From a virus (taxonomy: Duplodnaviria > Caudoviricetes), in IMG/VR virus record IMGVR_UViG_3300033062_002302: a stretch of DNA of 64,000 nucleotides; one strand, written 5' to 3'. Below the pieces are notes generated by a model. That model saw only the letters and a program-made list of their open reading frames with translations. It had not been told where the DNA came from and searched no databases. A program made the translations under genes and the position numbers. Shown here one piece after another: positions 1,786-51,723 of this stretch (positions are counted from its first letter, which is position 1; each line of letters starts with the position of its first letter).

Positions 1786-3351
1786 ATGGTTTATTACTTT
1801 AATCCGGTTAATCAAGGGATTATTTCTGCGGAAAGCAATGGAGATGGATATTCCGTTGTTTTAAAGTGGAATATCGCTTATCCGACCGTCAGGACTAATA
1901 AGCTCGCTTACCACATTTACATGTCTACCGAAGAAGATACGGTCTTTTCGGAAGGTGTCAAATTTATTTCTTTTGGAACGAGCACAACCACCGAAATTTT
2001 TGATCTTGAACCTGGGCAAATGTATCACTATGCCGTCAGAGCAATTGAATATAATGAATCAACTTTTGATCTCTCTCTTCCAACTCTAGATAATGGTTTA
2101 AAAATTTACCCTCAGAGTCTCCTCCGAGCCGATATTTCTGCTAATGCAACACTTATTACATTATTAGACTCTAGCGAATTTCCTATTAAAGGAATTGTTA
2201 AAATAGGAGTTGAGTTAATAAATTATTCGAGTAATGATTTATTAAATAATAATTTAAATCTTCTTAGTTCTGTTATTCAAAGAGGTTTTAGTAATACTAA
2301 TCCTAGAATGCATCAGACGGATGGTTATGATGGTTATAATACTTGGAGCCCTTACGTTACTTATACATTAGGTAGAGATGAAGAGGCAAATACTCGGATA
2401 TTCTCTATTCAAAATAGATTTGATGGTCAGTATACTTATACTGAAGATGATGGCTATTATCAAATTACTAAAGATATTTTAACGACCGATTTATCTGGAG
2501 CAGACGCTTCAAACATTAATTTTCCTAGTTATGATTTTGCTGGTTGGCATCGAACAGACCCGGCTGATTTATTTTCTGGAGCTTGTGTTGGTAGTTATTT
2601 TGGCGGTCAATCTGGATGTGCAGATGGCTTTACGGTTCGAGGATTATCTGTTCAGGATCAAAATAATCAACGTGAAGAAATGCTATTAGATATAACCGGA
2701 GAGGCAGTTTGTCTTCTTCGGAAACGTTGGACTGGAATTACTTGTTCATGCTATTTGCCATCTAATGAAAATGCAGACGCTCGATGTCCACGATGTCTTG
2801 GCGGCAAATTCATTATTAGTTGGGATCAATATTTTAATCCAAGACGTTCTGATGGGCGTATTATGGTTCGCTTTTCACCAGCAGACGATGAAGTCAAAAA
2901 ACAAGATTTTGGTTTAGAATCAGACTTTTCAACAGATTGTTGGACTCTAACAGTTCCAACTGTTAAGGACTGGGACATTATTGTTCGTTTTGATCAAGAT
3001 GGAAATGAAGAATTTAGATATGAAGTCATGTCTGTCAATCGGAATAAAACTTTATTTGGGTTGCAAGGCGCTCAGAAATTTAAAGTTCAAAGAATTAGAA
3101 GAACGGATACGATTTATCAGGTTCCTGTCTTCCGAGATACCTCGACTCTTCCGGCTAAAATGAACACTTCTATTAGTTCTGCTTCTGGAGTTGGACCCCA
3201 CATGCACGAATTTATTACAACAAATCAAGCAGTTGGCAATTTTGGTCAAATCACAAGCGTTTCTCAAGGTCATTCTCATCAAATCAGATATGTTAATGGT
3301 CAATTAACTGTTTTAGAGGTTCTCGGTCACACTCATACGTTAGTTTTGTAA
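1786..3351 (+). CDS. Virion neck/head-closure-like protein with N-terminal FN3-like domain, Zn finger and C-terminal HxH repeats
   Basis: FN3-like LEPGQMYHYAVRA; CSC-x11-CPRCLGG motif as in large-myovirus stopper proteins; HMH/HSH/HTH at C-terminus; first gene of the tail block. Confidence 0.5.
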   Translation: MVYYFNPVNQGIISAESNGDGYSVVLKWNIAYPTVRTNKLAYHIYMSTEEDTVFSEGVKFISFGTSTTTEIFDLEPGQMYHYAVRAIEYNESTFDLSLPTLDNGLKIYPQSLLRADISANATLITLLDSSEFPIKGIVKIGVELINYSSNDLLNNNLNLLSSVIQRGFSNTNPRMHQTDGYDGYNTWSPYVTYTLGRDEEANTRIFSIQNRFDGQYTYTEDDGYYQITKDILTTDLSGADASNINFPSYDFAGWHRTDPADLFSGACVGSYFGGQSGCADGFTVRGLSVQDQNNQREEMLLDITGEAVCLLRKRWTGITCSCYLPSNENADARCPRCLGGKFIISWDQYFNPRRSDGRIMVRFSPADDEVKKQDFGLESDFSTDCWTLTVPTVKDWDIIVRFDQDGNEEFRYEVMSVNRNKTLFGLQGAQKFKVQRIRRTDTIYQVPVFRDTSTLPAKMNTSISSASGVGPHMHEFITTNQAVGNFGQITSVSQGHSHQIRYVNGQLTVLEVLGHTHTLVL

Positions 3352-3384
3352 TGGATAAAAACGTATTCTTAATGAAGAAATAAA

Positions 3385-5007: not shown

Positions 5008-5014
5008 GGAAACG

Positions 5015-7051: not shown

Positions 7052-7061
7052 GGAAATTAAA

Positions 7062-7499: not shown

Positions 7500-7551
7500 C
7501 CTTAATAAGTGTGAATAATATCACATTTTGGTACAGAATCGGAGCTAACTT

Positions 7552-13046: not shown

Positions 13047-13844
13047 ATGGCAATTAATAATTTCTTCATTTCGGATCTTCCAAAGATCTATAATGTAGTT
13101 CAAAATTCAATGATTGTTTATCCTAAGGAATTGGCAATTGCCGTTCTACGGGACCATTTTTCTGATGATAGCTATTATCATTTCTCTAAAGACGCCTGGG
13201 GTTTCCCTAATACCCCAGATCATACCGATCTTCCAAGCGAAGCCGGAATCAATGATAACGTTACAACGCGTCTTTTTATTGGAGAAAATTACCGTGATAA
13301 TGTAACCTATTTTCCAGCCATTTTGATTAAAAATTCTGGAATGAAGTCAGTTCCAATTGGATTGAGCCGCGAAGAAGGCACGGTCAAATGGGGAATTAGA
13401 ACTTTTGATGATGGATATGGAAACCTATCTTTCTTTAAAAATCCTGAGAGTCTTATCTTTGCCGGAGCTTGGGAAGGGACTCTTTCGATTGATATTATTG
13501 CTCGAAGCACTCGAACAAGAGATGAATTAATTCAGGAAGTAGCCCTCTGTTTTACAGACCTTAAATTTAAATTAATGCATAAAGCAGGCGTTCTGTGCAA
13601 ACCTTTAGACGTTTCTTCTCCTACCGAATCTGATGATAGGAACGGAAAGCTTTTTAAACAAACAATTACAATTCCAATTAGAACAGAGTGGAAAAGAGAG
13701 ATTCCAGTTTCAAATATTGTTCAAACTATTAATTTTATTATAGAATTTGGATATTTAGAAGTTCCAGAACCAATTATTGCGCAAAACTTAACGATTAGAA
13801 CTAATATAGAATTATTAGATATTTTGGCAAATTTGGAAGTCTAA
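13047..13844 (+). CDS. Putative tail terminator/completion protein
   Basis: Directly upstream of sheath; FPAILIK and LSIDIIARSTRTRDEL patterns resemble gpU/gp15-like terminators. Confidence 0.5.
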   Translation: MAINNFFISDLPKIYNVVQNSMIVYPKELAIAVLRDHFSDDSYYHFSKDAWGFPNTPDHTDLPSEAGINDNVTTRLFIGENYRDNVTYFPAILIKNSGMKSVPIGLSREEGTVKWGIRTFDDGYGNLSFFKNPESLIFAGAWEGTLSIDIIARSTRTRDELIQEVALCFTDLKFKLMHKAGVLCKPLDVSSPTESDDRNGKLFKQTITIPIRTEWKREIPVSNIVQTINFIIEFGYLEVPEPIIAQNLTIRTNIELLDILANLEV

Positions 13845-13932
13845 CTAGGAAATACTAATATAACAGTAAATAAGTAATATTTTAGTATTTCAACAGGCAG
13901 AGAAGCAAGCAGCTTTTTACTAAGGATCAAAA

Positions 13933-16683: not shown

Positions 16684-16691
16684 TATGAAAT

Positions 16692-17396
16692 ATGTTATTA
16701 ACAAAAATTTGCGCTAAATGCAAGCTTGAACTCGACACTTCTCTTTTTCATAAGAGAAATAAATCTAGTAATGGATTCAAACCGCGTTGTAAAAAATGCA
16801 CTAAAGAAGATAATTTAAAAAATTCTGATAAAATAAAATTACAAAGATTAAATTTTAGAAAGAAAAATAGAAAAAGATTAGTTCAAGATACTAAAAAATA
16901 TGTTGAAAATAATAAAGAAGTCAGAAAAGAATATGAGCGAAATTATTATCTTTTAAATAAAAATAAAATTTTGGCTAAAAATAATATATATACAAAAATT
17001 AAAAGAAAAACAGATCCGTTTTTTAGATTGAGAGGGCAAATTACTAATGCAATTAGTAGGGCTTTAAAACTACAAAATGGATCTAAAAATAACGAATCCT
17101 GTATAAAATATTTACCATATACTATTTTTATGTTAAAAGAACATATAGAATCATTGTTTGAGCCTTGGATGAATTGGCAAAATCAAGGAATGTATCCTAA
17201 TAAAACTTGGGTTGATGAAGACCAATCTACCTGGGTCTGGAGTTTAGATCATATTATACCTCAATCTACTTTACCATATTCAAATATGAATGATGAGAAT
17301 TTTATTAAGTGTTGGTCTCTTGATAATTTAAGACCATATTCCGCTAAACAAAATTGGCTTGATGGAATTAATAAAGTAAGGCATAAGACAATATAA
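16692..17396 (+). CDS. Free-standing HNH homing endonuclease
   Basis: N-terminal CAKC...CKKC Zn ribbon, Lys-rich helix, C-terminal WSLDHIIP...CWSLDNLRPYSAKQN; very AT-rich relative to flanks. Confidence 0.8.
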   Translation: MLLTKICAKCKLELDTSLFHKRNKSSNGFKPRCKKCTKEDNLKNSDKIKLQRLNFRKKNRKRLVQDTKKYVENNKEVRKEYERNYYLLNKNKILAKNNIYTKIKRKTDPFFRLRGQITNAISRALKLQNGSKNNESCIKYLPYTIFMLKEHIESLFEPWMNWQNQGMYPNKTWVDEDQSTWVWSLDHIIPQSTLPYSNMNDENFIKCWSLDNLRPYSAKQNWLDGINKVRHKTI

Positions 17397-17432
17397 TTAG
17401 TGAAAGTTAATTAGTTTCAGGAGATTTAAAAA

Positions 17433-18053
17433 ATGGCTTCTTACCCGTCCACAGGCAGTACACTAAATGGCTCACAAGGTAATGGCAATAAAACCAGTAC
17501 CGGTGTTTCAACTAGCATTATAATTAAAGTTGGTCCCAATACTGTTGGAGCCATTCAGGAACTTTCTGTCTCTGAAAGTCGAAATATCAAAATGATTCAG
17601 GAAATTGGAACAGATGGAAATATAGATTCAGTTCCAAATTCAGCGACTGAAATCACCGGAAGCTGTAAACGAATTCGATTTGATCGGATGCGAATTGCAG
17701 AATCATTGGGTCGAGGCTTTTTGCATGCCAAATCGCAACGTGTTGGTTTCAATATTGAAATTATTGATACTTGGAATGGCGATGGTTCGGCATCTCTGAT
17801 TACGACTCTAACCAATGTCTGGATATCTAAAATAGATTTTTCTTTCAGCTCACAAGACTGGGTTATTGCGGATACTATGCAATGGAAAGCTGAAGATATT
17901 TCAACTCACTTCCCGAATGGCTCTCCTGGTGCAACGGGTGGTGAACGTAACCTTCAATTGGCAATCGACCCAATTGAACAGCTAACGGATATTGGTGGTC
18001 GTCGCGGAAGTTTGGACGCTGGCGGGCTCCTAAAAAGCTTCCTCCCATATTAA
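17433..18053 (+). CDS. Tail tube protein
   Basis: 206 aa after sheath; IIIKVGPNTVGAIQELSVSE and ITTLTNVWISK strands fit a gp19-like tube; AGGAG RBS. Confidence 0.8.
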   Translation: MASYPSTGSTLNGSQGNGNKTSTGVSTSIIIKVGPNTVGAIQELSVSESRNIKMIQEIGTDGNIDSVPNSATEITGSCKRIRFDRMRIAESLGRGFLHAKSQRVGFNIEIIDTWNGDGSASLITTLTNVWISKIDFSFSSQDWVIADTMQWKAEDISTHFPNGSPGATGGERNLQLAIDPIEQLTDIGGRRGSLDAGGLLKSFLPY

Positions 18054-18071
18054 TGCGTTATATCAGTAAGT

Positions 18072-19103
18072 ATGGTAGACGCAAATTTAATAGAAAAAAT
18101 ATTAATATATAGAAAAGATGGCTATTCAGGGCTTAAAATAGCCGTTGAATTATGTTTACATAAAAGTCTCGTATATAGAATATTGAAAGATCCAATTTTT
18201 GATGGAATTAAAAAGAAAAATAATAAACAAAAAAGATTAAGTCTTTTTATAAAAGCTGAAATTAAAAGGCTGTATGATTTAAATTATACAACACAACAAA
18301 TTGTTGACGAACTTAATTTAACTCATTGGACAATTACTAGATATTATAGAAAATATAATTTTAACAAAAAAGGAGCCAAAAATTATTCATCTAATTTGTC
18401 TCCCGATCAAGAAATTCAAATTAAAAAATTAATAGCTGAAGGATATGGTAGAGTTAAAATTGCTAAAATCATTAATTCAACAGAGGCTATAATTAGATCT
18501 TATTGTAGGTTTAATAAAATTAAAACCATAGATAATAAATGTTTGAGCAAATCAACTCCTGAAATGATATCTAAAATATTAGAATTACATGAAGCGTGTT
18601 TAAATTCATCTGAAATAAGTCGAAAAACCTACAATCAATTTAAATTATCTAAACATATAATTAGAAAAGTTTTATTAAAAAATGGATTGCCATCAGTAAA
18701 ACCATTAACTAAAGAGCAAATTAGGGATAGAGAACTTTTAAAAAGAATACGAAAGAATTTTTCTAAAGGCGTTCATAGAGAATTAAGAAATAATATTGAT
18801 AATAAGACTTGGAATAATTCATTTACTAAACATGTATCTTATACGATATCTGAATTAAAAGAACATATAGAAAAACAATTTGAACCATGGATGAATTGGG
18901 ATAATTGGGGAAATTATCGTTTAGATTCTTGGAAAGATGATGATGTAACAACTTGGCGATGGCATATAGATCATATAGTGCCAGTAAATAGTTTTATATA
19001 TACGTCCATGGAAGATAAAGCATTTGTTGAATGCTGGAAATTAAGTAATTTAAGACCTTTATCAGGTAAAGAGAATATTATAAAAGGACATAAGATTATT
19101 TAA
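18072..19103 (+). CDS. Free-standing HNH homing endonuclease with tandem HTH-like repeats
   Basis: Four HTH-like units, then HIEKQFEPWMNWDN and WHIDHIVP...CWKLSNLRPLSGKEN; paralogous to 16692..17396. Confidence 0.8.
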   Translation: MVDANLIEKILIYRKDGYSGLKIAVELCLHKSLVYRILKDPIFDGIKKKNNKQKRLSLFIKAEIKRLYDLNYTTQQIVDELNLTHWTITRYYRKYNFNKKGAKNYSSNLSPDQEIQIKKLIAEGYGRVKIAKIINSTEAIIRSYCRFNKIKTIDNKCLSKSTPEMISKILELHEACLNSSEISRKTYNQFKLSKHIIRKVLLKNGLPSVKPLTKEQIRDRELLKRIRKNFSKGVHRELRNNIDNKTWNNSFTKHVSYTISELKEHIEKQFEPWMNWDNWGNYRLDSWKDDDVTTWRWHIDHIVPVNSFIYTSMEDKAFVECWKLSNLRPLSGKENIIKGHKII

Positions 19104-19161
19104 AGGCATTTCTACCATATTAACATATACTTAGCTTATCTTAGCTTATTTAAAATAAATA

Positions 19162-19206
19162 ATGTCTCTTCCTGATATATTAATTAGGAAGAGATGTTTA
19201 TTTTTG
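19162..19206 (+). terminator. Hairpin, probable intrinsic terminator
   Basis: TCTCTTCCT / AGGAAGAGA inverted repeat followed by a T-rich tract; the TGATATAT motif lies across stem top and loop. Confidence 0.5.
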
Positions 19207-19216
19207 GAGATTAAAT

Positions 19217-19969
19217 ATGCCAAGTATTAAAAGTGATATAATGAATAAAAATTTACCTAGCTCTCAAATGAGAGAATTTGAAGTATCTAATCCAGATGAT
19301 GTAGAAGAGAGTCAAATTGATTATGATTCATTGTCGCCTGAAATTCAGGCTATAGTCAATCAATTTGAACAAAGGGGGATGAAGATTGATGACAACGTTA
19401 TCCGGTCTTTAATCGCCAAGCATGCGGCGCAAATGCCACCTCCAATGCCCAAGACAATGCAGATTGATGACCCTCTTGATTCTTATCCATCTGTTAAAGA
19501 TATGGAAAAGCAAATTCAAGAGGCTAAGCGTTTGAAATTACAGCCGAATAAGAGCAGATTGAGTCCGGCAGCTAAGAAACGAATCGAGATGTTGTCTGGT
19601 TTGAAAAAAAATACCAGAACTTGCGTTATTGGAGATTATGAATATCAGCTTCAGACGTTAAGAGGTGGTGAATTGAAAGATGCTATTATGGCGGCATCGG
19701 CGTTTGATGGGACGATAGAGCTTCCATTTGAGACGCGGAAGCAGCTTTTGGCTCGTTCTTTGACTCATGTAGCCGGGACGGATATTGATACTTTCTTAGG
19801 AAGCTCTTCATTAGAGGCTAAATTAGAGTTTTTGGGCGAAGAATTAGATGAAAGAATTACTTCAAGGCTTTATAATGAGTATTTGTTATTGGTTGATGAG
19901 GTAACAAAGAAATATTCAGTGAAAACGGCGGAAGACGCTCAGGAAGTGACAGAAGACCTAAAAAAATAA
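19217..19969 (+). CDS. Tail assembly chaperone (gpG-like)
   Basis: Between tube and tape measure; ends in slippery CTA AAA AAA TAA. Confidence 0.75.
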   Translation: MPSIKSDIMNKNLPSSQMREFEVSNPDDVEESQIDYDSLSPEIQAIVNQFEQRGMKIDDNVIRSLIAKHAAQMPPPMPKTMQIDDPLDSYPSVKDMEKQIQEAKRLKLQPNKSRLSPAAKKRIEMLSGLKKNTRTCVIGDYEYQLQTLRGGELKDAIMAASAFDGTIELPFETRKQLLARSLTHVAGTDIDTFLGSSSLEAKLEFLGEELDERITSRLYNEYLLLVDEVTKKYSVKTAEDAQEVTEDLKK

Positions 19970-20319
19970 TAAATGAACCAGAGCATCGATTTCTCTGGTT
20001 CTTGGTCAAGACATTGGGGAAGATGCCTGATGATCCTGCACTAGAAAACATGAATCCGGTTTTAAAGCTATGGATGTTTGAAAACTGGCTTGAAGATCAA
20101 AATGATGATATTGAATTAGTCAAAAATCACGCATATCTAATAGGATCCTTTATTAATCCAGAAGCGGTTCGACAACTCACGGGTCAGGATGGAAATACTC
20201 ATTCTTTGAGCGATGAGGAATTTGATAAATCACTTGAATTAGTTAAGCAAGATAGAGACAAAAATTCAGGGAGAAGAAGACGGCGAAGAAAAGTTAAAGA
20301 AGTTCAAGAGAAGGTTTAA
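19960..20319 (+). CDS. -1 frameshift extension of tail assembly chaperone (gpGT-like)
   Basis: The -1 frame is open from the A7 run at 19960 (KKIINEPEHRFLWFLVKTLGKMPDD...) to 20319; the called TTG start at 20002 has no RBS. Confidence 0.8.
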   Translation, partial: KKIINEPEHRFLWFLVKTLGKMPDDPALENMNPVLKLWMFENWLEDQNDDIELVKNHAYLIGSFINPEAVRQLTGQDGNTHSLSDEEFDKSLELVKQDRDKNSGRRRRRRKVKEVQEKV

Positions 20320-20322
20320 TTT

Positions 20323-22464: not shown

Positions 22465-22473
22465 AGGATCATT

Positions 22474-23331: not shown

Positions 23332-23332
23332 T

Positions 23333-30144: not shown

Positions 30145-30152
30145 AGGATAAT

Positions 30153-30503
30153 ATGAAAAAATTAAGCAAAATAACCTATGATCGATTACTTGCTCAAGCC
30201 GAAGAAGCTAAAGAGCTAGGATTTGATTATCTTGAAGAAGGAATAATTTCATCTATTGGAGATGAACCGACTGAAAATCAAGAGACTTATTCTTCTCTTC
30301 AATTAGATAAAGATATTTATAATGATCTTTGGAAAATTGCAGTCAACGTTATTGCTTATCATGGAGCTAAGGTAGTAGACGCTTCTAAAGTAGATGATGT
30401 TATTTCAAAATTAGCCGAAACAGTTCTTTCTGAACTAGAAGCTTCTTTAGGCAAAGAAAATGAGATAAGTCCTCAGGAACCAAAGCTTCCAGGTCAAAAA
30501 TAA
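30153..30503 (+). CDS. Hypothetical acidic protein
   Basis: 116 aa ORF with AAGGA RBS, tightly packed. Confidence 0.6.
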   Translation: MKKLSKITYDRLLAQAEEAKELGFDYLEEGIISSIGDEPTENQETYSSLQLDKDIYNDLWKIAVNVIAYHGAKVVDASKVDDVISKLAETVLSELEASLGKENEISPQEPKLPGQK

Positions 30504-37800: not shown

Positions 37801-38958
37801 ACAATTGACGTAGATAACAACCTTCTTTTGTTTACAAAGACATCTGCCGCTTTAGCGGGCGATGATGTTATGGTTTTAACTTATGACTATGAAACCATTA
37901 AACAATCTCCAACCAAGCTTATTTTGACGGTTGTTGACTCGACGGCAAATACTGGAACCATTTCGGTTAATGGAACGACAATTACGAAGGCGAAAGATGT
38001 TTTATTCTCGGCAACTTCAACTAGTTTGAAGCAAAATTTATTTGAGGCTATTAGAAAAGTATTAGGGCTGAATTCGAATTCGTCTATTCCGAGCACCATT
38101 AAATTAGTCAAGATTACAAAATTAGAAAGAGTTTCGACAGAAGGAGAAGTCGTTCTATTATCTCAAGCAAATTATGATTTGTTAGGATTAACAATTCAAG
38201 ATAATAGTTTTTACTCAGAAAATATTATTTCAAATACAGATTATAATAATTTAGAGTTTAGCCTTCCTTCAACTCAAAACAATGTTTTGAATTTAGACGC
38301 TCAGGTTAAAGCCGGAGATAAATTTAGAATTACCTTTTATTACTCTACGACTAATGATACTGAAAATGTTATTTTTACTAGAAATGGAACCTTATACACT
38401 AATAAAGCATTTGCTTTGATTGATAAAGTTTATATTTCTAGTGGATTTAATTCTTCTCAATCAACTAGAATTATATTAAGTAATTTCAATCAGCCTATTA
38501 CTGGTTCTAGGTATAAAGTTTTTTATGATTATATGGCTCCTAAGCAGAATGAAAGAATAATTATAAAATCAAATAACAATAGGTTGGTTTCAACCGTTAC
38601 TTTTAATGTAGAAACTAATAGACCAATAAATGCGGATGTTTTAATTAGACAAGCTAAACAAGTAGATATAGATGTTACTATGAATGTTGTTATTTCTGAT
38701 TCTTTTAAGAGTTCATCTGCTCTTGTCTTGCAAAATTTGAAAGATAAGCTAGTTACGGCAATTAATGCGAATGCATTAGGAACTGTTTTAGATTCATCTA
38801 GTTTAGTTAATGCGGCATTCTCAGTCGATGGGGTTGCAGGAGCTAGAATTATCTTCTTTAATAAGACAGGTTCTTTTGGTCAGGTTCTAAGTTTAACAGC
38901 TAAGGAAGATGAATATTTTTCAGCTAACTTAGTGACGGTAGCAGCAGAAACAAGATAA
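34846..38958 (+). CDS. Baseplate wedge protein, gpJ/gp6-like, with large central insertion
   Basis: TGSDLDKLAKNFGITRKSAT, GGNNQEDDATFRNRV, GKVDIVILG signatures; C-terminal SVDGVAGA. Confidence 0.85.
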   Translation: MVVVRSLNEIILSLIDFYRIAQPNLDTKPATVARDLLIDAPSNQLALLYDQISQVSTQQSLQLVTGSDLDKLAKNFGITRKSATASSGVALITFSSIPATIGIGRGDIVTAANGISYSVVNGISVSPTNINFYRSTATKFRNDLDFVGITDQFAVEVTVQSTTPGTQGNIGKYSLNRTTTPGASNVTNTSSFLGGNNQEDDATFRNRVLSVFSGSSIGTALGYRNLALSTTGVTDAFVVEPGNPLMTRDGSVVSEDASGNLTVISEGTGGKVDIVILGTDLVENTDSFIYRDKSNKNDPTDPKNTVVLGQITGDENKTINRRRIDNIKAGTLPSQPVDSIIQVSGSGSGSNFKEQTIDSFGRVSGNYKLVKDTGSFAGSPFGFDSFIWTSDRISLFEEDRIKGKFNGQDAVTFSDVSEIPIIQQNISITNENSTVLNSDRSLIQLLHFPAKTATRVFNSTTGERYTVLNQNPNGSGTTNTSGVIKISGNTLPSQSDVLQVDYTWVLTFDQFTDYDGRFFTDNLREVTDSIDWGYSNLIRDEEVMLSQNDAGTYYVGNTTLPIGAILTVNSYEEIGGVVSQVTSGTYTGRLSVVITNLINTTTSIDHVLFRNTNVELFKTSANDGLFTNASIVVGIDIQYTTTIILPSDTKASIGDTVTVIKNSKDTFNVTGSVGNFNGNQVTVPLTNFSTTPDTLTAKINYIANVQDIISTGITSMPVSRVGNGFGTNSSIGFNNVNIANVARRENQVVQKNTSNQFYIELNAASVDVSLSSLKILTVIRLSDIKELWNQDNAGTIEIGTSGNYQLIFTGFNTPAIADKVLVIYYAEDVKRFQPFTFSNDVFSRDFGTLQYDITTNKFSVPLHTFIAQTGLSFEILEKNSDDVIASGSDGYITTPFSNLSKANFSSLTVNFDTLVDVDLSPIDITSKRIRIFNSININNNNYYEISSYNENSNIFVISNDFSKINKKQISVIRVLDGKELWSDTGTIDVDNNLLLFTKTSAALAGDDVMVLTYDYETIKQSPTKLILTVVDSTANTGTISVNGTTITKAKDVLFSATSTSLKQNLFEAIRKVLGLNSNSSIPSTIKLVKITKLERVSTEGEVVLLSQANYDLLGLTIQDNSFYSENIISNTDYNNLEFSLPSTQNNVLNLDAQVKAGDKFRITFYYSTTNDTENVIFTRNGTLYTNKAFALIDKVYISSGFNSSQSTRIILSNFNQPITGSRYKVFYDYMAPKQNERIIIKSNNNRLVSTVTFNVETNRPINADVLIRQAKQVDIDVTMNVVISDSFKSSSALVLQNLKDKLVTAINANALGTVLDSSSLVNAAFSVDGVAGARIIFFNKTGSFGQVLSLTAKEDEYFSANLVTVAAETR

Positions 38959-41900
38959 TGGATAATCTAAGAATCATAGGAGTCGAAGTCATTGATAGCG
39001 TGACGCTCGTTGCTAAATTTAGCCATAAGCTAGATTCAAGCATCGGTGCATCTAATGTCACCATCACTTCGCAATTAGACAGTGTTCCTTCACCTAATGT
39101 TTTAAAGGCAGAAGTCAATAGCGAAACATTGGTGATTACTTGTCAGCCTATGACTCCGCAAGCGCCTTATTTTATTAAGTTTTTGTCATTGCCAGCCATT
39201 CCATTTAAATCTGTCAATGCAACAGCCATCATGTTAAATGATGACGTTAGCAATCAATATTATATTATTGGACCAATTGAAGCTGGTAATATAATTCAAG
39301 ATCTCTTAATAGACTACTTAAGAGAAACTCCTTTAAATGTAACAGATAATACGACTATTGTTAATAAAGTTCTTCAAAGCTATTCATTACTTTATTCTAA
39401 AGCTTTATATGATATCAAGCAATTAAAAAATGAAAATTATTTATCTTTTGATGTCTTGGATGAAGAAAAGACTCGTCAAGAAGGACCCTTTGATCGTCTC
39501 TTAGAAGAAGGCGCCTATCAAATAACAAGAGTTGGAAAAACTCCGACCGGATTCTCCGCTACTTTAGATTTTAATTTTGAAGAGTTCCCTGATTTTCCAG
39601 TTTCTCTTTTAAAAGAAGAAGTCTCAGAACTATTAAACATAGATTTTGAAGATAATGATAATACATTTAATATAAACACTTTTACTTTAAATGTGTCTAA
39701 GACAAATGTATCTAAGTTATTAAGTGTTATTTTTCATTATAATAACGGTCATTTAGATTACGAATATCCTATTGAAACATTGGGCTATCAAATAACCAAT
39801 TCTAAATATGATAAAGATTATGGTTTTAGCTATTTAGTGCTTTTAACAGATCAGTTTAGATTGAGTGAAGCTATTTTAAATGATCCTGATTTTTCAAATC
39901 AAAATATTTCATATGTAGAAGTAACTTATGAATATAGAAATTTGGGCAGAATTATTGATGAGGATTCCGTTACGGCTTCGACTATTTTAAGTGTTTCTAG
40001 GGAACCTTTACCTCCAATCATCAATATATTTAATTTAAAGCATGCGCCAATTGTTGATCAAAATGGAGATATTTATACAACTGGAGGCGCGACTTTTATT
40101 GATCCAAATGCTTATTTAACAACGGATAAGCATCCAGCATTTTTATATGAAATTGCATTTCGTCTTAATGCATTGCCTCGACGTCCTGGCGAATATTGCA
40201 TTGATTATGAAACTGGAACGGTTTATGTCTTTGGAGAAGATGCTGATAATGATGGAACGGGACCTCAACCACCACTCATTAGCTATGATTATCAATTTAC
40301 TTATGTCTCTCAGGTTGATTACGTTTATGACGCTTCCTCTGGAGATTTAGTTGCTTTACCTAATGGAAATTTAGTCTCTCAAGAAGGAGACATAACTTTT
40401 AATTATGAAGAAGTTTTAGTTCCTGATTTAGATTATCGAGCAACGGTTCATCAAGAAAATCTATCAGAAAGAATTGAAAATAAATTATTAGCCTTAAATG
40501 TTGTTAAAGCGGCTAATTCTCCAATTACTAATGTTTTTAGAATCTTTAATGAGACATCAGGGGAAATATACTCACCAATTCGTTGGAGTAATGATAAGAT
40601 ATATTTTTCTTATAATACCCCTCCTAATGTTTTACCTTTTACAGGAGAAAAAGTTTCTTTTAAAGATTCATTAAATGAAATATTATTCGTTAATCAAGAG
40701 CTAACAAATGGAAGTTCTATTCGAATCTTTAAATGTCTTTTATCTGATAATAATTTAGTTTCTGGCTCAGAAGATTGCTTGGCTTCATCAATTAATAATT
40801 CAATTAATTTATCTAATGATGATGTCTTTGTTAATCAAAAATGGTTTGACCCCTTTTTAACGGAAAGTCAAAACATTGATAAACTAGATGTGGTTGGTCA
40901 ATATAAAATTGATTATGCTAATGGAATTGTTTACGTTGCAGTTTCTCCAGGGCAATCTATTGAAATAGGAACGATTACTTATAAAACTAAACTAATTGAT
41001 CCTATTAATAGCCATGTCATTTCTGTAGATGATATTTATTATCAAACATCTATTTTAAATCCTAAAGATAAAACTTTTGAATACACTTCATTTGGAGAAG
41101 GATTTATTCAGCCATTAGATTTGGATGCTTCCGATGAAGGCTATCTAAATGAAACTGAGACTTCGCCTTATCAGGTTAATTCAACAAAGGTTGGAGCTTT
41201 TGTTGATGCTGTATTCGTTCCTGGCGTTTCTCAAAATATTAAGTTTATCCGTAGTCTTTATGAACTAAATGACCTTCAAAATAGTTATAGCCCCATTAAT
41301 TTTATGGAGGCTTGTACCTTTGATGGACGAGTCATTACAGTTTCTCCGATTGAAAAAACAGAATATAATATTGTTGAATATAATATTTCAGATGGTTATT
41401 TCATAACCATTAATTTGGCGCAACCATATTTATCTTCAAATATTGAATTTAATGTTTCTATTATTAGAAATTCAGATGCTCAAGAACTATGGGACAACTC
41501 TGGAATTGTTGTCGCTGGAGATCAAGTTAAGCTTAAATTATCTGGAGTCAACTCTCCAAATGCTGGAGATTCAGTTATTACAAGCTGGAGCTTGACGATT
41601 GATGATTTGTCTAGAATCATTGTTGATTATAATAAAGGAGATTTGTATATAGATTATACTTATCTTGCAGATGAAATTTTAATTAGCTATGAGTATGGGG
41701 AAAACCATATTGACTTTAGGCAATCAGAGTCAGTCTCTCCAGGTAGCACCTATTATGTAAGTTATAAGGTCGGAGCTTTACGCGATGCTTTGTTAAAGAA
41801 TTTTGGAAGCCTTGTTAATATTCCAGAGTTAAGCAATTTTGATATTAATCTTAATCGAGAAAGATATCGAGATTCATTGTCAGCCGCACTAGAGTCTTTT

Positions 41901-44900
41901 ATACAAGGTCCGACCATTACGGCAATTAAAAATATTGTTAATAAAATATCTCATATTGATCCTGAAATTGTCGAATCAGTCTTTCAAAATTGGTCATTAG
42001 GAACAAGCTTTTTAAATCCAAGAGGATTTGAAACGACCGGAAGCTTTGAGCTTTTGCCAGCCAAATATGGCAATGGAGCATTAATTAATGCCGAAGGTCA
42101 ATCTATTACATTACCAGTCTCTTCTAATTTAAGACTAGAAAAAGGGTCATTGGAATGTTGGGTCATTCCAGAATGGAATGGAATTGACAATGATGCGGAT
42201 ATAACATTCACTTTAACTAGAGATGGTTATCAGATTGAATCTAATTACATTTTTATTGGTTCAGCCGAATACCATCCTATTCTTAATTTAGATGGAACGT
42301 TTTCATTAAATAAATTAAGTAATGCGGCAGGCGCTCCTAATAAGAACAAAGACGGTATTTTCATTTATTATAATGATGATCCTGCTCAAGATTATAAGCG
42401 CTGGTATTTAGATGTTGTTGATGGGTATTCTTTTGGTCAAGTTGATGGCTATTCTACAACTTATTCTCTTAAAGTTAGTACGCCCAACGGAATGTTTTAT
42501 GATGTCAAGGCAATAGATAATCCTAAGCCTTCTAACATGAAGATTACGTCAGGAACAAGCAATATTTCAGTTTCTATTACGGATACAGCTCGATTCAATG
42601 AAGGCTTTACTTTCATCTCAGATCGAGAGCATTATCTCTTTGATTTTGGTGAAAAGAAAAATAAATGTCGGTTTTCTATTTACAAGGATCCAAGCGGATA
42701 TTTAAATTTTAGAATATTTGACCGAGATGGAGTCAGCTATTCTATCGGCGCAGATGTTTCTTCTTGGCAAGCTCATGAAAAGCACCATGTTGCAACCGCC
42801 TGGAAGTTAAACGACAAGCTTGAGAGAGATGAATTACATTTATTCATTGATGGTCAAGAAGTTCCAAATATTATTAGATATGGAACTAAAGTTAGCCCTT
42901 ATCTTCATGAAAGATATCGAACTATTAATCCAGAAGAGATAGCTGGATTTACTCCTAAGACTATTATTGGCTCTATTGATTTGGTAACTACTGCTGGAAG
43001 TCCAACTGTCACTTCTCTCATTAATTTTGACGCCTATGGAATACTAGCTGGCGACACTATTACGATTGATGAAGTAGGATTTAATCCATCTGGCTATTCA
43101 ATTTTAACAGTTGCAGGTCAAACTTTGACCTTGTCTAGCAACATGCCTCTATCTTTAGAAGACGCTAAGTTCTCAGTTAATAAAACAGATTTAACGCTGT
43201 TAACTGCGGTAGATATTTATCCTAATATTGCAGTTTCAACCATTTCATCTTTCTTAGATGGCTATGACTTAATAACTAACGACGGTTATGACGCCGTCAC
43301 TTCATCTTCTATTGACTTTGAATTATTTGATGTTATTCCAGGAGATCTATTACGAATCGATGATGGATACTATGAAAATCATTATACTATTTTAGATGTT
43401 GATGGATATACTTTAACTCTAAATGATGATATGCCAGCAACGAATTCTGGCTTAGATTTCTTTGTTTATCATAATGAAGATGTTGAAATTCCAGGACTAA
43501 GAGCCTTGAGACCATCATATTCTTTATCTAAAGATGGTTATTATAATAATGTTCTTTCACTTGAGAATGATGTTCAAGCTAATGATTTAATTTTAATTAA
43601 AACCTTAGGTTTAAATCATAAAAGAATTAAACAAAAATATTATGAATGGGGAGATGGATATAACAATGTTATTAAAACAACATTGCCCCCACCAATTTCA
43701 TTAAATGAAGTTAGTATTATTCATGGTATTCTATTAAATAAATTAGTGAATTCAAGCAATTCAACTCTCTTGGGAAATGACTTTACTTCATCTTCTTTCT
43801 CTGGAGAACAGCCATCTCTTTCAGATTCTGGAAGGACTCTAGCGGTTGATATTTCAAGTGGCAATCTAGATTTTAGCACTTCAGTTACCGTTACAATTAG
43901 TGGCGATGTTAACGGAAGTCCAACAAGCGAAGTATTAACTTTTACTCAAATAGAAAAAAAGAATACGTTAAATAAGTTTGAAACTATTACAGGTATTGTT
44001 GTTGCAGGTAAAGTTATTAATACTAATAGGTCTTATTTGGTTTTAAATGTTAAAGAGGCTTATTCTATTACTTACTCTGAAGGCAGCTCATTATATCCTG
44101 CCATTCGTTATTCTTATCAGTCTCGTGCAGGCATTGCTTTGACTGGACTTGGTGGAGCAACAGTTACAGACCTTGATGTCTTATTTAGCTCGACTGATAT
44201 TGGGAACTATCTTGTTATTGCAAGCCCAGGACCAGCTGCTGGAACTTATTTGATTTCTGGCGTTTCCGATGATAGAAACTCTATTAATATTGATGGGTAC
44301 ATTCCTCCTTTTAGCAATGGCATTTTTCAAATTTTAAATACAACTTCTTCTAGAAGCGGATTTCAAAATGGATTCTTCTTATTAGAAGAAGCTAATGACC
44401 CAGGAGTTCCATACCTATTAAAATCAGGAACTTATGAATTTGATTTTTATACCTGGACCAGTATTAAATTTAATCCAGTAAATTCATTAGCTTATGTTGG
44501 TTCGGATATTTTCAATAAAAACCATCTTAATGGAGTAATTGATGAATTAAAGATTAGTTCTAATCAATTGACAGATTTAAGAATTGGTGAAACCGCTCAA
44601 GTTAAACAAAACTACATTACTAAAGACTTCAATTCATTAAAAGAATTATCTTTTGATTCTAATACATTAGTTTTATCACACTTTGATTCATTTCCTTTTG
44701 TTAATGAAGCTGATTTTTATGTAATGTCAGAAGGAAAGAATTTTGTTCAGTCTGATGTTTCTGTTAATGATAATTTCTCTCAGAGTCTTGCAATTATTGA
44801 CAAGCCTTTTATCATTGATAATGATGGGGTCTTAGATACGCGCAAAGAAGGAACGATTGAATTTTGGGTTAATTCATTATATGATACTACGAACGATCCA

Positions 44901-46085
44901 ACTCATCGATTTTATTTTGATGCGGCAGGAATCAATTTAGAGACGGTCACGAGCCTTGATGATTCGACTCTTCAGATTTCAGGAAGAGCGGCTCAAGTTG
45001 TTTCAGTTAAACTAAAAAATGGCGATCAAAGAATTGATTACTTTGCTGGTGGAGCTATTGAAACTTCAACCGAGGGCGCTATTGCTGAAACAACAATGAG
45101 TATAACGGATAGTACCGTTAGCACTTCTAAGAAGATTCTTCAAGTAGTGACAGTTAAAATTGTTGGAGACCCAACCGGAACAGATTATTTTGCAGGCGGT
45201 GGAGTTAGTCAGGATGGTCGAACTATTTACCTAGCCAGAACTTTGCCTCAGTCTAGTTTGAATCTAATTGTTGTTTATAAATCAGCTGAATCAGGATCTA
45301 AAACCTTTAATAGTCAAGTTATTAGATTAAAGAAAAGACTACCAAATCAAAATAGCCAGGTTGTTGTAACTTATATCCCTAGCGGTCTTCATGGAGATAG
45401 AATGTCTATCTATAAAGATGAGTCTGGATATGTTAATTTCAACGTTAGAGCCAATGACTTCGATTATCAGGTCCGAGCCCCCATTTTCTGGTCAGCTAAT
45501 TCCTGGCATAGAATTAAAGCGACTTACTCTATAAATGGAGGAAGAAGCAACGATCAGCTACATCTTTTCATTGATGGGTATGAGTATAAAAACATTCTTT
45601 TTGGAACCGGACTCCTATTTGGAGACCCATATGTTGTTGGCTCTTCTTACTCTGGAACCTCGGCTATGATGGTTGATATTAAGTTTAAAGATGTTCCAAC
45701 GGAATTGTTTATAGGAACTGAATTTAATGGTAAAAATGCTGCTAATGCCTTAATTGATAATTTAAGAATTAGCAATATCGCTCGTCCCTTGTTCGCTCCA
45801 TTTGGAGAATCAATAGATGTCAATTATTCTAGCAATTTAGACATTGTTTTTCCAGTAACAGAAGATTTATACACGACCTATCTGCTTGATTTTAATACCA
45901 TTTTGGCTAAAAATGACGATTTCGTTATGCTAAAAAATAAAAATTCAGGAATATTTGATTTTGAAGTTAATGTTTTTGATTCATTCGATTTAATCAAAGA
46001 TAATAATAGAGTCAAAGAGATATTAGAGGTCTTATTAAAAGCCTTAAAACCTGCTAATAGTCGTATTTTTATTAAGTATGAATAA
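38958..46085 (+). CDS. Giant baseplate wedge protein (gpI/gp7-like) with two LamG-like domains
   Basis: YRDSLSAALESFIQGPTITAIK and terminal LKALKPANSRIFI motifs; GSLECWV/GTIEFWV, LHLFIDG x2, IDELKIS/IDNLRIS LamG elements. Confidence 0.7.
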   Translation: MDNLRIIGVEVIDSVTLVAKFSHKLDSSIGASNVTITSQLDSVPSPNVLKAEVNSETLVITCQPMTPQAPYFIKFLSLPAIPFKSVNATAIMLNDDVSNQYYIIGPIEAGNIIQDLLIDYLRETPLNVTDNTTIVNKVLQSYSLLYSKALYDIKQLKNENYLSFDVLDEEKTRQEGPFDRLLEEGAYQITRVGKTPTGFSATLDFNFEEFPDFPVSLLKEEVSELLNIDFEDNDNTFNINTFTLNVSKTNVSKLLSVIFHYNNGHLDYEYPIETLGYQITNSKYDKDYGFSYLVLLTDQFRLSEAILNDPDFSNQNISYVEVTYEYRNLGRIIDEDSVTASTILSVSREPLPPIINIFNLKHAPIVDQNGDIYTTGGATFIDPNAYLTTDKHPAFLYEIAFRLNALPRRPGEYCIDYETGTVYVFGEDADNDGTGPQPPLISYDYQFTYVSQVDYVYDASSGDLVALPNGNLVSQEGDITFNYEEVLVPDLDYRATVHQENLSERIENKLLALNVVKAANSPITNVFRIFNETSGEIYSPIRWSNDKIYFSYNTPPNVLPFTGEKVSFKDSLNEILFVNQELTNGSSIRIFKCLLSDNNLVSGSEDCLASSINNSINLSNDDVFVNQKWFDPFLTESQNIDKLDVVGQYKIDYANGIVYVAVSPGQSIEIGTITYKTKLIDPINSHVISVDDIYYQTSILNPKDKTFEYTSFGEGFIQPLDLDASDEGYLNETETSPYQVNSTKVGAFVDAVFVPGVSQNIKFIRSLYELNDLQNSYSPINFMEACTFDGRVITVSPIEKTEYNIVEYNISDGYFITINLAQPYLSSNIEFNVSIIRNSDAQELWDNSGIVVAGDQVKLKLSGVNSPNAGDSVITSWSLTIDDLSRIIVDYNKGDLYIDYTYLADEILISYEYGENHIDFRQSESVSPGSTYYVSYKVGALRDALLKNFGSLVNIPELSNFDINLNRERYRDSLSAALESFIQGPTITAIKNIVNKISHIDPEIVESVFQNWSLGTSFLNPRGFETTGSFELLPAKYGNGALINAEGQSITLPVSSNLRLEKGSLECWVIPEWNGIDNDADITFTLTRDGYQIESNYIFIGSAEYHPILNLDGTFSLNKLSNAAGAPNKNKDGIFIYYNDDPAQDYKRWYLDVVDGYSFGQVDGYSTTYSLKVSTPNGMFYDVKAIDNPKPSNMKITSGTSNISVSITDTARFNEGFTFISDREHYLFDFGEKKNKCRFSIYKDPSGYLNFRIFDRDGVSYSIGADVSSWQAHEKHHVATAWKLNDKLERDELHLFIDGQEVPNIIRYGTKVSPYLHERYRTINPEEIAGFTPKTIIGSIDLVTTAGSPTVTSLINFDAYGILAGDTITIDEVGFNPSGYSILTVAGQTLTLSSNMPLSLEDAKFSVNKTDLTLLTAVDIYPNIAVSTISSFLDGYDLITNDGYDAVTSSSIDFELFDVIPGDLLRIDDGYYENHYTILDVDGYTLTLNDDMPATNSGLDFFVYHNEDVEIPGLRALRPSYSLSKDGYYNNVLSLENDVQANDLILIKTLGLNHKRIKQKYYEWGDGYNNVIKTTLPPPISLNEVSIIHGILLNKLVNSSNSTLLGNDFTSSSFSGEQPSLSDSGRTLAVDISSGNLDFSTSVTVTISGDVNGSPTSEVLTFTQIEKKNTLNKFETITGIVVAGKVINTNRSYLVLNVKEAYSITYSEGSSLYPAIRYSYQSRAGIALTGLGGATVTDLDVLFSSTDIGNYLVIASPGPAAGTYLISGVSDDRNSINIDGYIPPFSNGIFQILNTTSSRSGFQNGFFLLEEANDPGVPYLLKSGTYEFDFYTWTSIKFNPVNSLAYVGSDIFNKNHLNGVIDELKISSNQLTDLRIGETAQVKQNYITKDFNSLKELSFDSNTLVLSHFDSFPFVNEADFYVMSEGKNFVQSDVSVNDNFSQSLAIIDKPFIIDNDGVLDTRKEGTIEFWVNSLYDTTNDPTHRFYFDAAGINLETVTSLDDSTLQISGRAAQVVSVKLKNGDQRIDYFAGGAIETSTEGAIAETTMSITDSTVSTSKKILQVVTVKIVGDPTGTDYFAGGGVSQDGRTIYLARTLPQSSLNLIVVYKSAESGSKTFNSQVIRLKKRLPNQNSQVVVTYIPSGLHGDRMSIYKDESGYVNFNVRANDFDYQVRAPIFWSANSWHRIKATYSINGGRSNDQLHLFIDGYEYKNILFGTGLLFGDPYVVGSSYSGTSAMMVDIKFKDVPTELFIGTEFNGKNAANALIDNLRISNIARPLFAPFGESIDVNYSSNLDIVFPVTEDLYTTYLLDFNTILAKNDDFVMLKNKNSGIFDFEVNVFDSFDLIKDNNRVKEILEVLLKALKPANSRIFIKYE

Positions 46086-46118
46086 TAGATATAATTTGAT
46101 ATATGATAAAGAGAGAAC

Positions 46119-49100: not shown

Positions 49101-49877
49101 TTCTCTGTTGCAGTTCAATCTTTTAGCCCAAATACTAATGGAACAGACTCAGATGGTTATTCAGGGGTTATCGTTGATGGTAAAATCGGCGTCTCCATGG
49201 ATTACGCAACTGGATTGTTAAGACTTAACTTCACGAACCTTTATGAAGATTCCGTTCTTCAGACTTTAAATACTAAAGTTCAAATTAACGTTTACCTTAA
49301 AAAAGGTGGGTTTAATAACTCTCCATTGTTTGTAGATTCGACCAAGGTTCAAAACTTATTAGAATTAATCAGCGTTTTCAATGAAAATAGCCCATTAGAA
49401 GGTTCAACCAATCACACTCAAGTTACTCAGCAAACGACGACAGAATGGAAAGATACGAGTTCTACTGATTATAGCGCTTCTGCTCCAAAGGCGTCTAAAC
49501 GCGAGAGGCGCCGTCAGTTTACGACCACTACTTCAACAGCCAATCAGGTTATTGAAGATGGCTATACGTTTGGCAATGTAGATTTCAGCTTATCAGATGA
49601 GGCGATTACGAGAGTCACCGCCTTGCTATTAGTTAAAAAATCCGGGACTGCATTTGGCGGTACCATTGAAATGAAGGCGGATTATATTAGAGAGGGAGCT
49701 GGACCCGTTTTAATTGGCGCCCCGACCATTACTTATAATTTGACTGGATCGACCTTGGACGGAACGACAGCTGATTTTAATATCAATGGAAATAAGATTG
49801 AGATTAGAGTTTCTCCTGAAAGCGCTGATATTTTGAATTGGCGAATCTTCCGGACTCAAAATGAAGGAATAGACTAA
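46119..49877 (+). CDS. Tail fibre/baseplate-attached protein with dockerin-like Ca-binding loops
   Basis: Follows wedge genes; YGDINGDGVVDDADL and RADIDGDFEITAND motifs. Confidence 0.55.
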   Translation: MTKRSPISGLQNLYSDAEQLDDSDLTAEQSYNNSIQNAIINNHVGIGVLPEVLNQNILFDSLLVSGLLDGTNIAPQAQPTDSNQGNQLEIELKNSKAAGKRTVKIAIIGLDFENNLQYDTLVFKANEVQITKKHYTNILAIFFNDFIGTTIQSFNLGGQVIIKEAKPFSLSRDPIMAAQDIEPNLFWRDFFVSSVSSLTTLLTNSLPLYNIDNLNINTGYKENKVLEENDVTTQIGQKFLATTNNIQKISLLLSVQNTNPGFETDLAWEGELVVSIFPLQSTIQCSTDIVPNLAIDFSPSNIPLAQLSFDYDSLQSLGTTLDGNPQPVDFVFSNTQVGTGNAIVPGNYYAVTLKRSGSANKCDILITAGSNISSDSRATMFTGSVWVDLPDDDLWHRVFTDAAKISDGQAYETGHGIIIPKINLDSETNAQIDYSLDGIQFTGTELYTGVVAAELEQSVPIQDQRTGNPVNSRQQFVPKVKLLNPIDLSNLSKTTEPFVVGLVADKNKKSFEASSSVLSAGLHSWTFVKNELQLKIIDDSTDGYRYDLNVNALVNNLVNGDFTNAKLIPNISEPNTFYRVAKAELCSMIYGDINGDGVVDDADLDLYNLLLGMDLNVSPPAISSISTDGYVTTYTNGYPFYADPFVNDFTVTFQLVDPATNLVVASGTDGILVVNPNDGSLATFQSASTNFSAITNLINLKLVIRLSTNECNNGGIEITSLNTSSNYIVNLRKVLLDSDKISQILRADIDGDFEITANDGYYLQNYILKAPPFPATTSPGNKIGTSFNVLKLKLDPFTYQDGYFTRNDDFYPTISNRGTVLHPIQDLYLEDTGLENHDFKNNPITFNLVKQLTWEERLISVASNARFVPTIFSSTSGHVHNSCEIDGIVCDIYPQGPELDPGTINAFVPNNLIIGDGGELQRPDGNPYKVDFEVGTIVLEIPDGIFGEERTLNVFDDFVADYTGKGITRLGFPALRFADCSLVEQEALLNNQVRFSVAVQSFSPNTNGTDSDGYSGVIVDGKIGVSMDYATGLLRLNFTNLYEDSVLQTLNTKVQINVYLKKGGFNNSPLFVDSTKVQNLLELISVFNENSPLEGSTNHTQVTQQTTTEWKDTSSTDYSASAPKASKRERRRQFTTTTSTANQVIEDGYTFGNVDFSLSDEAITRVTALLLVKKSGTAFGGTIEMKADYIREGAGPVLIGAPTITYNLTGSTLDGTTADFNINGNKIEIRVSPESADILNWRIFRTQNEGID

Positions 49878-51712: not shown

Positions 51713-51723
51713 AAGATTATTAA

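Follow-up and report, generated by a model that had tools for sequence, protein, structure and literature searches.

A strict Asp-Gly-Tyr mark on tail proteins of uncultured jumbo phages, and a conserved glycosyltransferase as its candidate writer

Results

The tail module and its DGY tripeptides

This study concerned the tripeptide Asp-Gly-Tyr (DGY) in the tail proteins encoded by a 64,000-nucleotide stretch of IMG/VR virus record IMGVR_UViG_3300033062_002302. This stretch, called the window, was part of one 239,327-bp virus record with 34.6% GC and a CheckV completeness of approximately 56%. The window holds, in one orientation, the neck-tail-baseplate-fibre module of an uncultured jumbo myophage. 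The closest GenBank phage match to the sheath showed 32% identity over one third of the sheath, and no cultured phage was close. Most tail proteins remained unnamed by PHROGs and Pfam; gp25-like and Baseplate_J proteins were identified in the module. The genes 3' of the fibres were, in order, a GT4-family glycosyltransferase (hereafter GT4), a GT2, an unknown 321-amino-acid (aa) gene, a second GT2, an intein-split dTDP-glucose 4,6-dehydratase (RmlB), a TubZ-like tubulin, and UvsW-like and DnaB-like helicases. The genome holding the window was designated G000. It was compared with G002, a complete 361-kb relative with approximately 50% identity and 148 reciprocal best hits with G000. DGY proved to be a real, undescribed mark on tail-associated proteins. 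A literature search retrieved no paper joining "DGY motif" and phage.

The open reading frames (ORFs) of the window contained 38 in-frame DGY in 20,593 aa. The expectation was 3.3 from per-protein composition (p = 4.9e-27) and 7.7 from an order-1 Markov model. The second most enriched tripeptide in the window had a p value of about 1e-4. An initial annotation of the window had counted 37 DGY against roughly 2 expected. The excess held under both models, and every per-protein count was reproduced from the ORF translations (Table 1; the ORF starting at 18072 held one more DGY). The tandem forms it had reported were located as DGYDGY in ORF 1786 (residues 179-184) and DGYGDGY in ORF 7552 (residues 615-621). 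DGY was absent from ORFs 16692-30503 (besides ORF 18072), 32664, 34376 and 49902-63844, which confirmed for the window ORFs that the inner tail proteins and the enzymes after 49.9 kb lack the tripeptide. The single DGY that had been assigned to an HNH gene was present in ORF 18072, but Pfam read this product as helix-turn-helix (HTH)-rich and not HNH. When the tripeptide count was extended to the whole record, head proteins included, as the annotation had proposed, 55 DGY were found vs 10.2 expected. The contiguous neck-to-fibre block accounted for 42 of the 55.

Table 1. Features of the window, with the DGY tripeptides of their products
Feature	Coordinates	Strand	DGY and remarks
Neck or collar-region protein, 521 aa, weak fn3 signal	1786..3351	+	4 DGY at nt 1843, 2320, 2329, 2449
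Virion-module protein without assigned family, 540 aa	3385..5007	+	3 DGY
Kelch beta-propeller protein, 678 aa	5015..7051	+	2 DGY; Pfam Kelch families E=6.7e-21
Large neck or tail-proximal protein, 1486 aa	7552..12012	+	4 DGY including DGYGDGY
Protein without assigned family, 344 aa	12012..13046	+	1 DGY at residue 19
265-aa protein directly upstream of sheath gene	13047..13844	+	1 DGY
Tail sheath, 916 aa	13933..16683	+	2 DGY at residues 147 and 416
Inner tail block: tube-like 206 aa, 250 aa, 105 aa, 713 aa, 285 aa, presumed tape measure 1622 aa, 648 aa	17433..30144	+	No DGY in virion proteins; sole DGY in HTH-rich insert ORF 18072-19103
Baseplate-region protein, 711 aa	30529..32664	+	1 DGY, site common to G002 orthologue
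Baseplate wedge (Baseplate_J / gp6-like) protein, 1370 aa	34846..38958	+	1 DGY at residue 889; PF04865 E=4.7e-18, phrog_6 E=6.4e-37
Giant fibre or baseplate-periphery protein, 2375 aa, C-terminal LamG-like domain	38958..46085	+	12 DGY
Tandem domain duplicate inside 2375-aa protein	42939..43436	+	Copy 1 residues 1328-1397, copy 2 residues 1424-1493; blastp self-alignment 39% identity, E=5e-12
Fibre protein, 1252 aa	46119..49877	+	6 DGY; gene directly upstream of GT4 gene
GT4-family (GT-B, retaining-type) glycosyltransferase, 373 aa, candidate writer	49902..51023	+	0 DGY
GT2 243 aa, unknown 321 aa, GT2 277 aa, intein-split dTDP-glucose 4,6-dehydratase 699 aa	50981..55618	+	0 DGY; syntenic in G002

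The degenerate sequence GAYGGNTAY occurred 41 times on the plus strand of the window, in frame in 38 of the 41 cases, and never on the minus strand. The flanking bases were not conserved, and codon choice at DGY matched the overall usage. All 16 of the 16 synonymous codon combinations were present among 481 DGY of relatives. The motif was confined to the reading frame, was missing from the minus strand and used every synonymous codon. This meant that it acts at the protein level, as the varied codons had suggested in the initial annotation. A DNA-level motif, such as a restriction, recombination or repeat site, was ruled out by the frame, strand, codon and flank data.

The motif is strict and is exactly D-G-Y. 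One-residue variants in the window gave observed/expected values of 5/4.0 for NGY, 5/2.3 for EGY, 2/2.8 for DAY and 0/0.6 for DGW. DGF was mildly enriched (9/4.3, about twofold), the permutations of D, G and Y were at expectation, and DGS and DGT were not comparably enriched. In the relatives, the value was 113/11.4 for DGY vs 7/14.6 for NGY. No residue was fixed in the flanks; Pro and Lys were rare at position +1, and basic residues were rare nearby. A hidden repeated domain carrying DGY was also ruled out, given the unconserved flanks, the Kelch, sheath, Baseplate_J and LamG contexts, and the orthologous and paralogous loops without DGY.

Spread among relatives and partition among protein families

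The excess of DGY was about 10-17-fold in approximately 150 related IMG/VR loci. Around sheath homologues with 40-57% identity, about 95 IMG/VR loci contained 669 DGY vs 75 expected. At least one DGY was found in 189 of 191 sheath homologues from a set of 5.8 billion proteins. In a profile search of 1.8 billion representatives, a second, distant sheath family was DGY-rich too, but other sheath families were not. G002 carried 74 DGY vs 15.5 expected, in the same orthologues as G000.

The outer families of the relatives reached 14-20 times the expectation. The observed/expected values were 233/16.7 for the 1486-aa neck family, 159/11.2 for the sheath, 65/4.0 for the 265-aa family and 24/1.2 for the 521-aa family. 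The tape measure family had no DGY in 67,528 aa (11.8 expected by composition, 6.1 by the Markov model), and the tube family had none in 15,606 aa (2.1 expected). The remaining inner tail families had 2 DGY in about 75,000 aa, so that all inner families together had 2 in about 170,000 aa. An avoidance of DGY in the tape measure is suggestive only, as the scarcity extended to other DGx triplets to the same degree and the orthologues do not count as independent. DGY was missing from the portal, from the protease fusion and from nine proteins of the head module (365-463 aa), and occurred once in a small head-module protein of 223 aa. The outward-facing virion proteins named in the initial annotation as carriers therefore stood for the neck, sheath, baseplate and fibres, but not for the portal and, with this one exception, the head.

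L011 was the sole DGY-free member inside the clade, with no DGY in 6,271 aa and non-DGY residues at each conserved site. No substitute motif was found in L011, and no L011-like genome was found in IMG/VR, JGI metagenomes or the set of 5.8 billion proteins. As L011 is a 21-kb singleton without relatives in the collections searched, this natural knock-out gave no reading on GT4. P0154, a sheath without DGY, was rejected as a DGY-free lineage because its neighbouring genes still carry DGY.

DGY was also seen far from the tail module. A 367-aa protein (G000:C1:35512-36615; L019:8185-9288, minus strand) had a repeated unit (…LQNRSV…DGYILTWSDM.NAW…) with two DGY. The G002 counterpart had 727 aa and three DGY. 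This is probably another fibre-like virion protein encoded outside the main module.

Placement and turnover of the sites

The sheath was identified by matches to PF17482 and PF04984 just under the cut-off and by an AlphaFold2 (AF2) model with a predicted local distance difference test (pLDDT) score of 80.8. In Foldseek, this model matched the phi812, T4, phiCD508, P1 and Mu sheaths at probability 1.00, with E down to 6e-14. In an alignment of 186 sheath homologues, DGY was located in 26 columns, all at residues 61-594; these residues form the variable part, and the conserved C-terminal third was free of DGY. Parsimony on the sheath tree gave at least 83 gains or losses of DGY. Residue 416 had DGY in 180 of the 186 sequences. 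The residues replacing DGY at the sheath columns were ordinary turn triplets, such as NST, NGT, DAN and LGT, and DGY usually stood in place of x-G-x or N/D-x-x turn triplets. On the AF2 model of the sheath, the columns with DGY mapped to coil-to-strand boundaries or tight hairpins.

Other families showed both kept and shifting sites. One site of the 1486-aa family was kept in 9 of 10 sequences, and many others were lineage-specific. At the site of the 265-aa protein, which the initial annotation called terminator, 10 of 11 orthologues had DGY; L011 had DVH. Three of the 12 sites of the 2375-aa protein were common to the G002 orthologue, which had 8 DGY. Between G000 and G002, 18 sites were common, and 20 and 25 were private, with similar counts per protein. 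The fast turnover of sites at a stable density indicated selection on the motif itself and not on its positions.

The tandem duplicate inside the 2375-aa protein served as a control carried by the genome itself. Copy 1 had no DGY, and copy 2 had four, which were aligned to GSI, AGS, VGF and AGQ of copy 1. These paralogous copies with none vs four DGY meant that the fold does not need DGY and that the Gly usually pre-exists. DGY was thus a short motif, over-represented on outer tail proteins and free to shift between loops, which is a sequon-like trait. As far as sequence comparison can tell, some factor must recognise exactly D-G-Y on presumably exposed turns of the tail proteins.

GT4 and the sugar-gene cluster

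The GT4 product matched PF13439 (Glyco_transf_4) with 38.8 bits (cut-off 28.5) and PF00534 (Glycos_transf_1) with 35.7 bits (cut-off 26.4). Its AF2 model had a pLDDT of 96.5 and showed the two-Rossmann GT-B fold. Foldseek matched it to GT4 structures at E=6e-17 with TM scores of 0.64-0.73. The best match was 3oy2, a putative glycosyltransferase of chlorovirus NY2A, together with MshA, PglA, BshA and PimA. SdgB (PDB 7vfl) was found lower, at rank 44-47 and at the fold level only (10-11% identity), which indicated no orthology. In the E-x7-E motif, E264 was invariant and E272 was present in at least 90% of 47 orthologues.

A GT4 orthologue was found in 5 of 5 complete main-clade genomes, approximately 36 kb downstream of the sheath. 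Among loci centred on GT4, the gene was located directly 3' of the fibre genes in 61 of 61, and a homologue of the 1252-aa fibre protein was upstream in all of them. A sharp boundary was observed at this gene. The 10 kb upstream contained 728 DGY vs 43.6 expected (16.7x), and the 10 kb downstream contained 24 vs 31.3 (0.77x). In the distant, strongly enriched genomes G007-G010, the GT4 orthologue was fused into an ORF of about 760 aa right after the fibres, and the fibres beside it had 17-19 DGY vs about 1.4 expected. GT4 was also present in G011-G015, where the fibres directly upstream had 6-14 DGY vs 1.4-2.0 expected (4-7x). As GT4 was present where the tag was limited to fibres, GT4 does not set the extent of the tag.

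GT4 was absent from G016 (76% complete) and G018 (88% complete). These genomes had 3 DGY vs 6.0 expected and 3 vs 4.8, respectively, with none in proteins above 500 aa. The two controls indicated that the composition-based expectation is not too low for phage tail proteins. GT4 orthologues were found in all DGY-bearing records tested. The lineages with GT4 probably all form one super-clade.

The other genes of the cluster followed the motif less closely. The two GT2 genes were not detected in the distant DGY lineages outside the main clade. Among the 61 main-clade loci, the first GT2, the 321-aa gene, the second GT2 and RmlB were present in 51, 36, 52 and 40, respectively. For the 321-aa gene (51724-52689), no family and no confident fold were found. 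Its homologues were present in two distant strong-DGY genomes, elsewhere in the genome, but two complete genomes with DGY on fibres only lacked them, as did a control. The initial annotation had proposed the adjacent glycosyltransferases as writers and had suggested a check of whether the DGY enrichment accompanies the glycosyltransferase/RmlB cluster. GT4 conformed to this, as it was present in all DGY lineages tested and its absence went with no excess in G016 and G018; the GT2 genes and RmlB did not, and common ancestry confounds the comparison.

In addition, no sign was seen of a route by which the glycosyltransferases would modify DNA through hydroxymethyl-pyrimidine, and the ThyA homologue of the genome scored as a true thymidylate synthase.

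Separately, in G005, a DGY-rich 394-kb relative, GT4 was split (G005:C1:165178-166292, locus L132). The gene was broken into two frames near residue 265-274, and its second part contained a TGA, owing either to a true frameshift or to an error in the assembly. In G014, a 3295-aa fibre protein at locus L283 (G014:C1:60320-80319) contained 14 YDG, 10 GYD and 14 DGY, against 2.0 expected. This suggests a repeated YDGYD-like unit in place of isolated tags.

Discussion

DGY as a possible glycosylation tag

We tentatively propose that DGY may be a glycosylation tag on tail proteins, written by the conserved GT4. Judged from genome comparisons, this is the reading we prefer, with a likelihood somewhat short of even. 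What we infer is the existence of a modification at the tag, its nature as a sugar, the role of Tyr as the acceptor and that of GT4 as the enzyme. DGY would be a short tag, read by a trans-acting factor on exposed Gly turns, and not a fold requirement. The tagged surfaces would be those of neck proteins, outer sheath domains, the baseplate periphery and fibres. GT4, encoded directly 3' of the fibre genes, would be the most likely reader. It may act in the cytoplasm late in infection and transfer a sugar onto the Tyr hydroxyl. Recognition would depend on Asp at -2 and on Gly at -1 in the turn, comparable to the upstream acidic residue of bacterial sequons. The glycan may be extended by other transferases that vary by lineage. 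The outcome would be a coat on the tail and fibres with fast-shifting attachment sites, like the glycan sites of viral glycoproteins. The glycan coat over the virion that was first suggested would be a tail coat at most, because the capsid is untagged. Since there is no Asn, Ser or Thr inside DGY, the acceptor would be Tyr or Asp, which would define a new class of sequon. A more specific form is put forward with greater reserve, as possible but doubtful. In this form, the soluble GT4 would be a protein tyrosine O-glycosyltransferase with its own beta-turn DGY sequon, and it would produce a shifting glycan coat in globally distributed uncultured jumbo phages. The coat would cover only the fibres in some lineages and the sheath and neck as well in others.

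Several results weighed against this proposal. The capsid, which is the largest exposed surface, had no tag. In G011-G015, the neck and sheath regions were not enriched (0/1.0 and 4/1.3) even though GT4 was present. Non-virion phage proteins showed no clear avoidance of DGY, since the value downstream of GT4 was near the 0.5-0.6 baseline of the controls. GT4 has a generic fold, and its structural neighbours mostly act on small molecules or lipids. To our knowledge, no GT4 glycosylates Tyr. Finally, GT4 and DGY share one super-clade, so the events are few in number and any core gene would correlate equally well.

Other readings of the motif

The recognition of DGY might be non-covalent. A decoration or fibre-bundling protein, or a host surface polymer, would bind Asp and Tyr on the Gly turn through many weak contacts. 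Strictness, outer placement, turnover of the sites and spread in the clade fit such docking equally well, as does the rarity of basic residues around DGY, and Asp with an aromatic residue is a common sugar-binding pair. However, a tripeptide placed in so many unrelated folds would hardly provide a defined binding site, and no candidate binder emerged. The 321-aa gene tracked the strong DGY lineages in 5 records but was near GT4 in only 36 of 61 loci. Docking also leaves the constant position of GT4 after the fibre genes unexplained, and we consider it quite unlikely. An enzyme other than GT4 might instead add a modification that is not a sugar. This could be sulfation, phosphorylation or nucleotidylation of Tyr, its oxidation to dihydroxyphenylalanine (DOPA) for adhesion or cross-linking, or the formation of isoaspartate at Asp-Gly, which is the most isomerisation-prone dipeptide. 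Strictness and selection imply a reader without naming its chemistry, and the surroundings of DGY were acidic and poor in Lys and Arg, similar to the contexts of Tyr sulfation. No such enzyme was seen in or beside the tail module, in a genome that is only partly annotated outside the window. The sole enzyme gene that stayed beside the tagged proteins over large evolutionary distances was a glycosyltransferase. We regard a non-sugar modification as unlikely.

DGY could also be an intrinsic structural device that has no reader. A compact turn with a cap like a "tyrosine corner", or a metal or cross-link site, would stabilise exposed loops of long-lived extracellular tail proteins. DGY was found at Gly turns and coil-to-strand boundaries, the related DGF was enriched about twofold, and helical proteins of the inner tail, the tape measure among them, could do without such a device. 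Yet the best hairpin formers (NGY etc.) were not enriched and were depleted in the relatives, and L011 kept the same proteins with zero DGY. Exposed beta-rich head proteins were also free of DGY. A structural-only reading fails because NGY-type turns were not favoured, orthologous loops function without DGY, and the tail proteins of two other large phages showed no excess; we give a device of this kind little chance. A neutral quirk of the lineage, arising from founder sites by descent, compositional bias or an alignment artefact, is very improbable. Some sites are indeed ancient and conserved, for example sheath residue 416. However, the independent changes in the sheath family alone were too many for descent from founder sites, and more than half of the sites differed between two genomes of approximately 50% identity while the counts were kept. 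In addition, the motif was in frame only with all synonymous codons, no other tripeptide behaved alike, and the DGY boundary at the GT4 gene was sharp.

Comparison with known systems

Bacterial sequons resemble DGY in several respects. The Campylobacter PglB sequon is D/E-X-N-X-S/T, and the general O-glycosylation motif of Bacteroidota is D-(S/T)-(A/I/L/V/M/T). Like DGY, they have 3-5 residues and an upstream Asp, mark surface proteins, and are freely gained and lost in loops. However, their acceptor is Asn or Ser/Thr, and the enzymes that use them are membrane oligosaccharyltransferases working outside the cytoplasm, whereas DGY has neither residue and its candidate enzyme is a soluble GT4. 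On the chlorovirus capsid, cytoplasmic glycosyltransferases encoded by the virus act at non-canonical sequons. Our proposal resembles this in its soluble glycosyltransferase, encoded by the virus, which would modify virion proteins inside the cytoplasm at motifs specific to the virus. In contrast, that system is found in a eukaryotic virus and places N-linked glycans on the major capsid protein, and 3oy2 is only a putative glycosyltransferase. SdgA and SdgB are cytoplasmic GT4-fold enzymes that use a minimal Asp-containing motif at many sites of a surface protein, but they add O-GlcNAc to Ser in long SD repeats of staphylococcal adhesins.

Mycobacteriophage virions are glycosylated by phage-encoded glycosyltransferases (Freeman et al. 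2023, as cited in PMC12619734). They share with the present phages the location of glycosyltransferase genes beside structural genes, and glycans on virion proteins are proposed here as well. The mycobacteriophage glycans are reported to be on C-terminal stretches of capsid and tail tube subunits, as a proven modification, whereas here the capsid and tube were untagged and the candidate sites would be a strict tripeptide in internal loops of neck, sheath, baseplate and fibre proteins. Tyr-linked glycans are established on the surface layers (S-layers) of Paenibacillus alvei and Thermoanaerobacter, often with rhamnose-containing adaptors (PMC2943079). The phage cluster likewise encodes dTDP-glucose 4,6-dehydratase, the first committed step to dTDP-6-deoxyhexoses. 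However, the S-layer glycans are built on a lipid carrier and moved by an extracellular O-oligosaccharyltransferase, with no consensus motif reported (PMC2943079), and no such transferase was seen in the phage window. The moraphages, an aquatic jumbo-phage lineage with 25 described genomes, have several core glycosyltransferases and predicted Bacteroidota hosts (PMC12619734). They may be related to the phages described here, by a likeness in described traits only, namely an aquatic origin and a large genome besides the core glycosyltransferases and predicted hosts just mentioned.

A strict three-residue motif was kept at constant density with shifting positions in hundreds of genomes of 29-56% GC. 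Even without a mechanism, this pattern indicates that phage tail surfaces are under a constraint that has gone unrecognised. Should the tag be a modification site, it would be a new minimal sequon with a new enzyme specificity, usable to place glycans on chosen loops. It would also mean that huge environmental phages coat their tails and not their heads, and it would allow outward-facing proteins of uncultured phages to be predicted from sequence. If the proposed glycosylation is true, DGY would be the first Tyr-directed glycosylation sequon, and the system would be the first of its kind inferred from proteome-wide motif statistics.

Other features of the record

The 1622-aa protein of the inner tail block was presumed to be the tape measure by its size and position, and the 285-aa protein of the same block showed a weak tube-initiator signal. 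Two likely mobile nuclease-type inserts (16692-17396 and 18072-19103) separated the sheath gene from the inner tail genes. The former was endonuclease VII-like (phrog_1035). The latter had three HTH domains in Pfam and a homologue in one related locus only.

Upstream of the window start, a block was located between the head and neck genes (G000:C1:114958-133731). By ORF size and N-terminal sequence, it contained a 2572-aa collagen-like protein, a LamG-like protein and a second sugar-nucleotide/glycosyltransferase cluster. Judged by its absence from G002, this block appears to be accessory and untied to DGY. The collagen-like protein as a conserved substrate of the glycosyltransferase cluster was rejected as a general explanation, since the protein and its sugar cluster were missing from G002.

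In the window, an intein interrupted the dTDP-glucose 4,6-dehydratase (53519-55618). Pfam placed Intein_splicing at residues 141-496 between the two enzyme halves, and the G002 orthologue had 321 aa without the insert. Among the relatives, one was binned with a metagenome-assembled genome (MAG) of Chitinophagales and another with a gammaproteobacterial MAG. A TubZ/PhuZ-like tubulin gene (55645-56976) was located directly 3' of the sugar genes (Tubulin E=6e-16, with TubZ-like_C). It showed 74% identity in G002, where it was within a 923-aa ORF.

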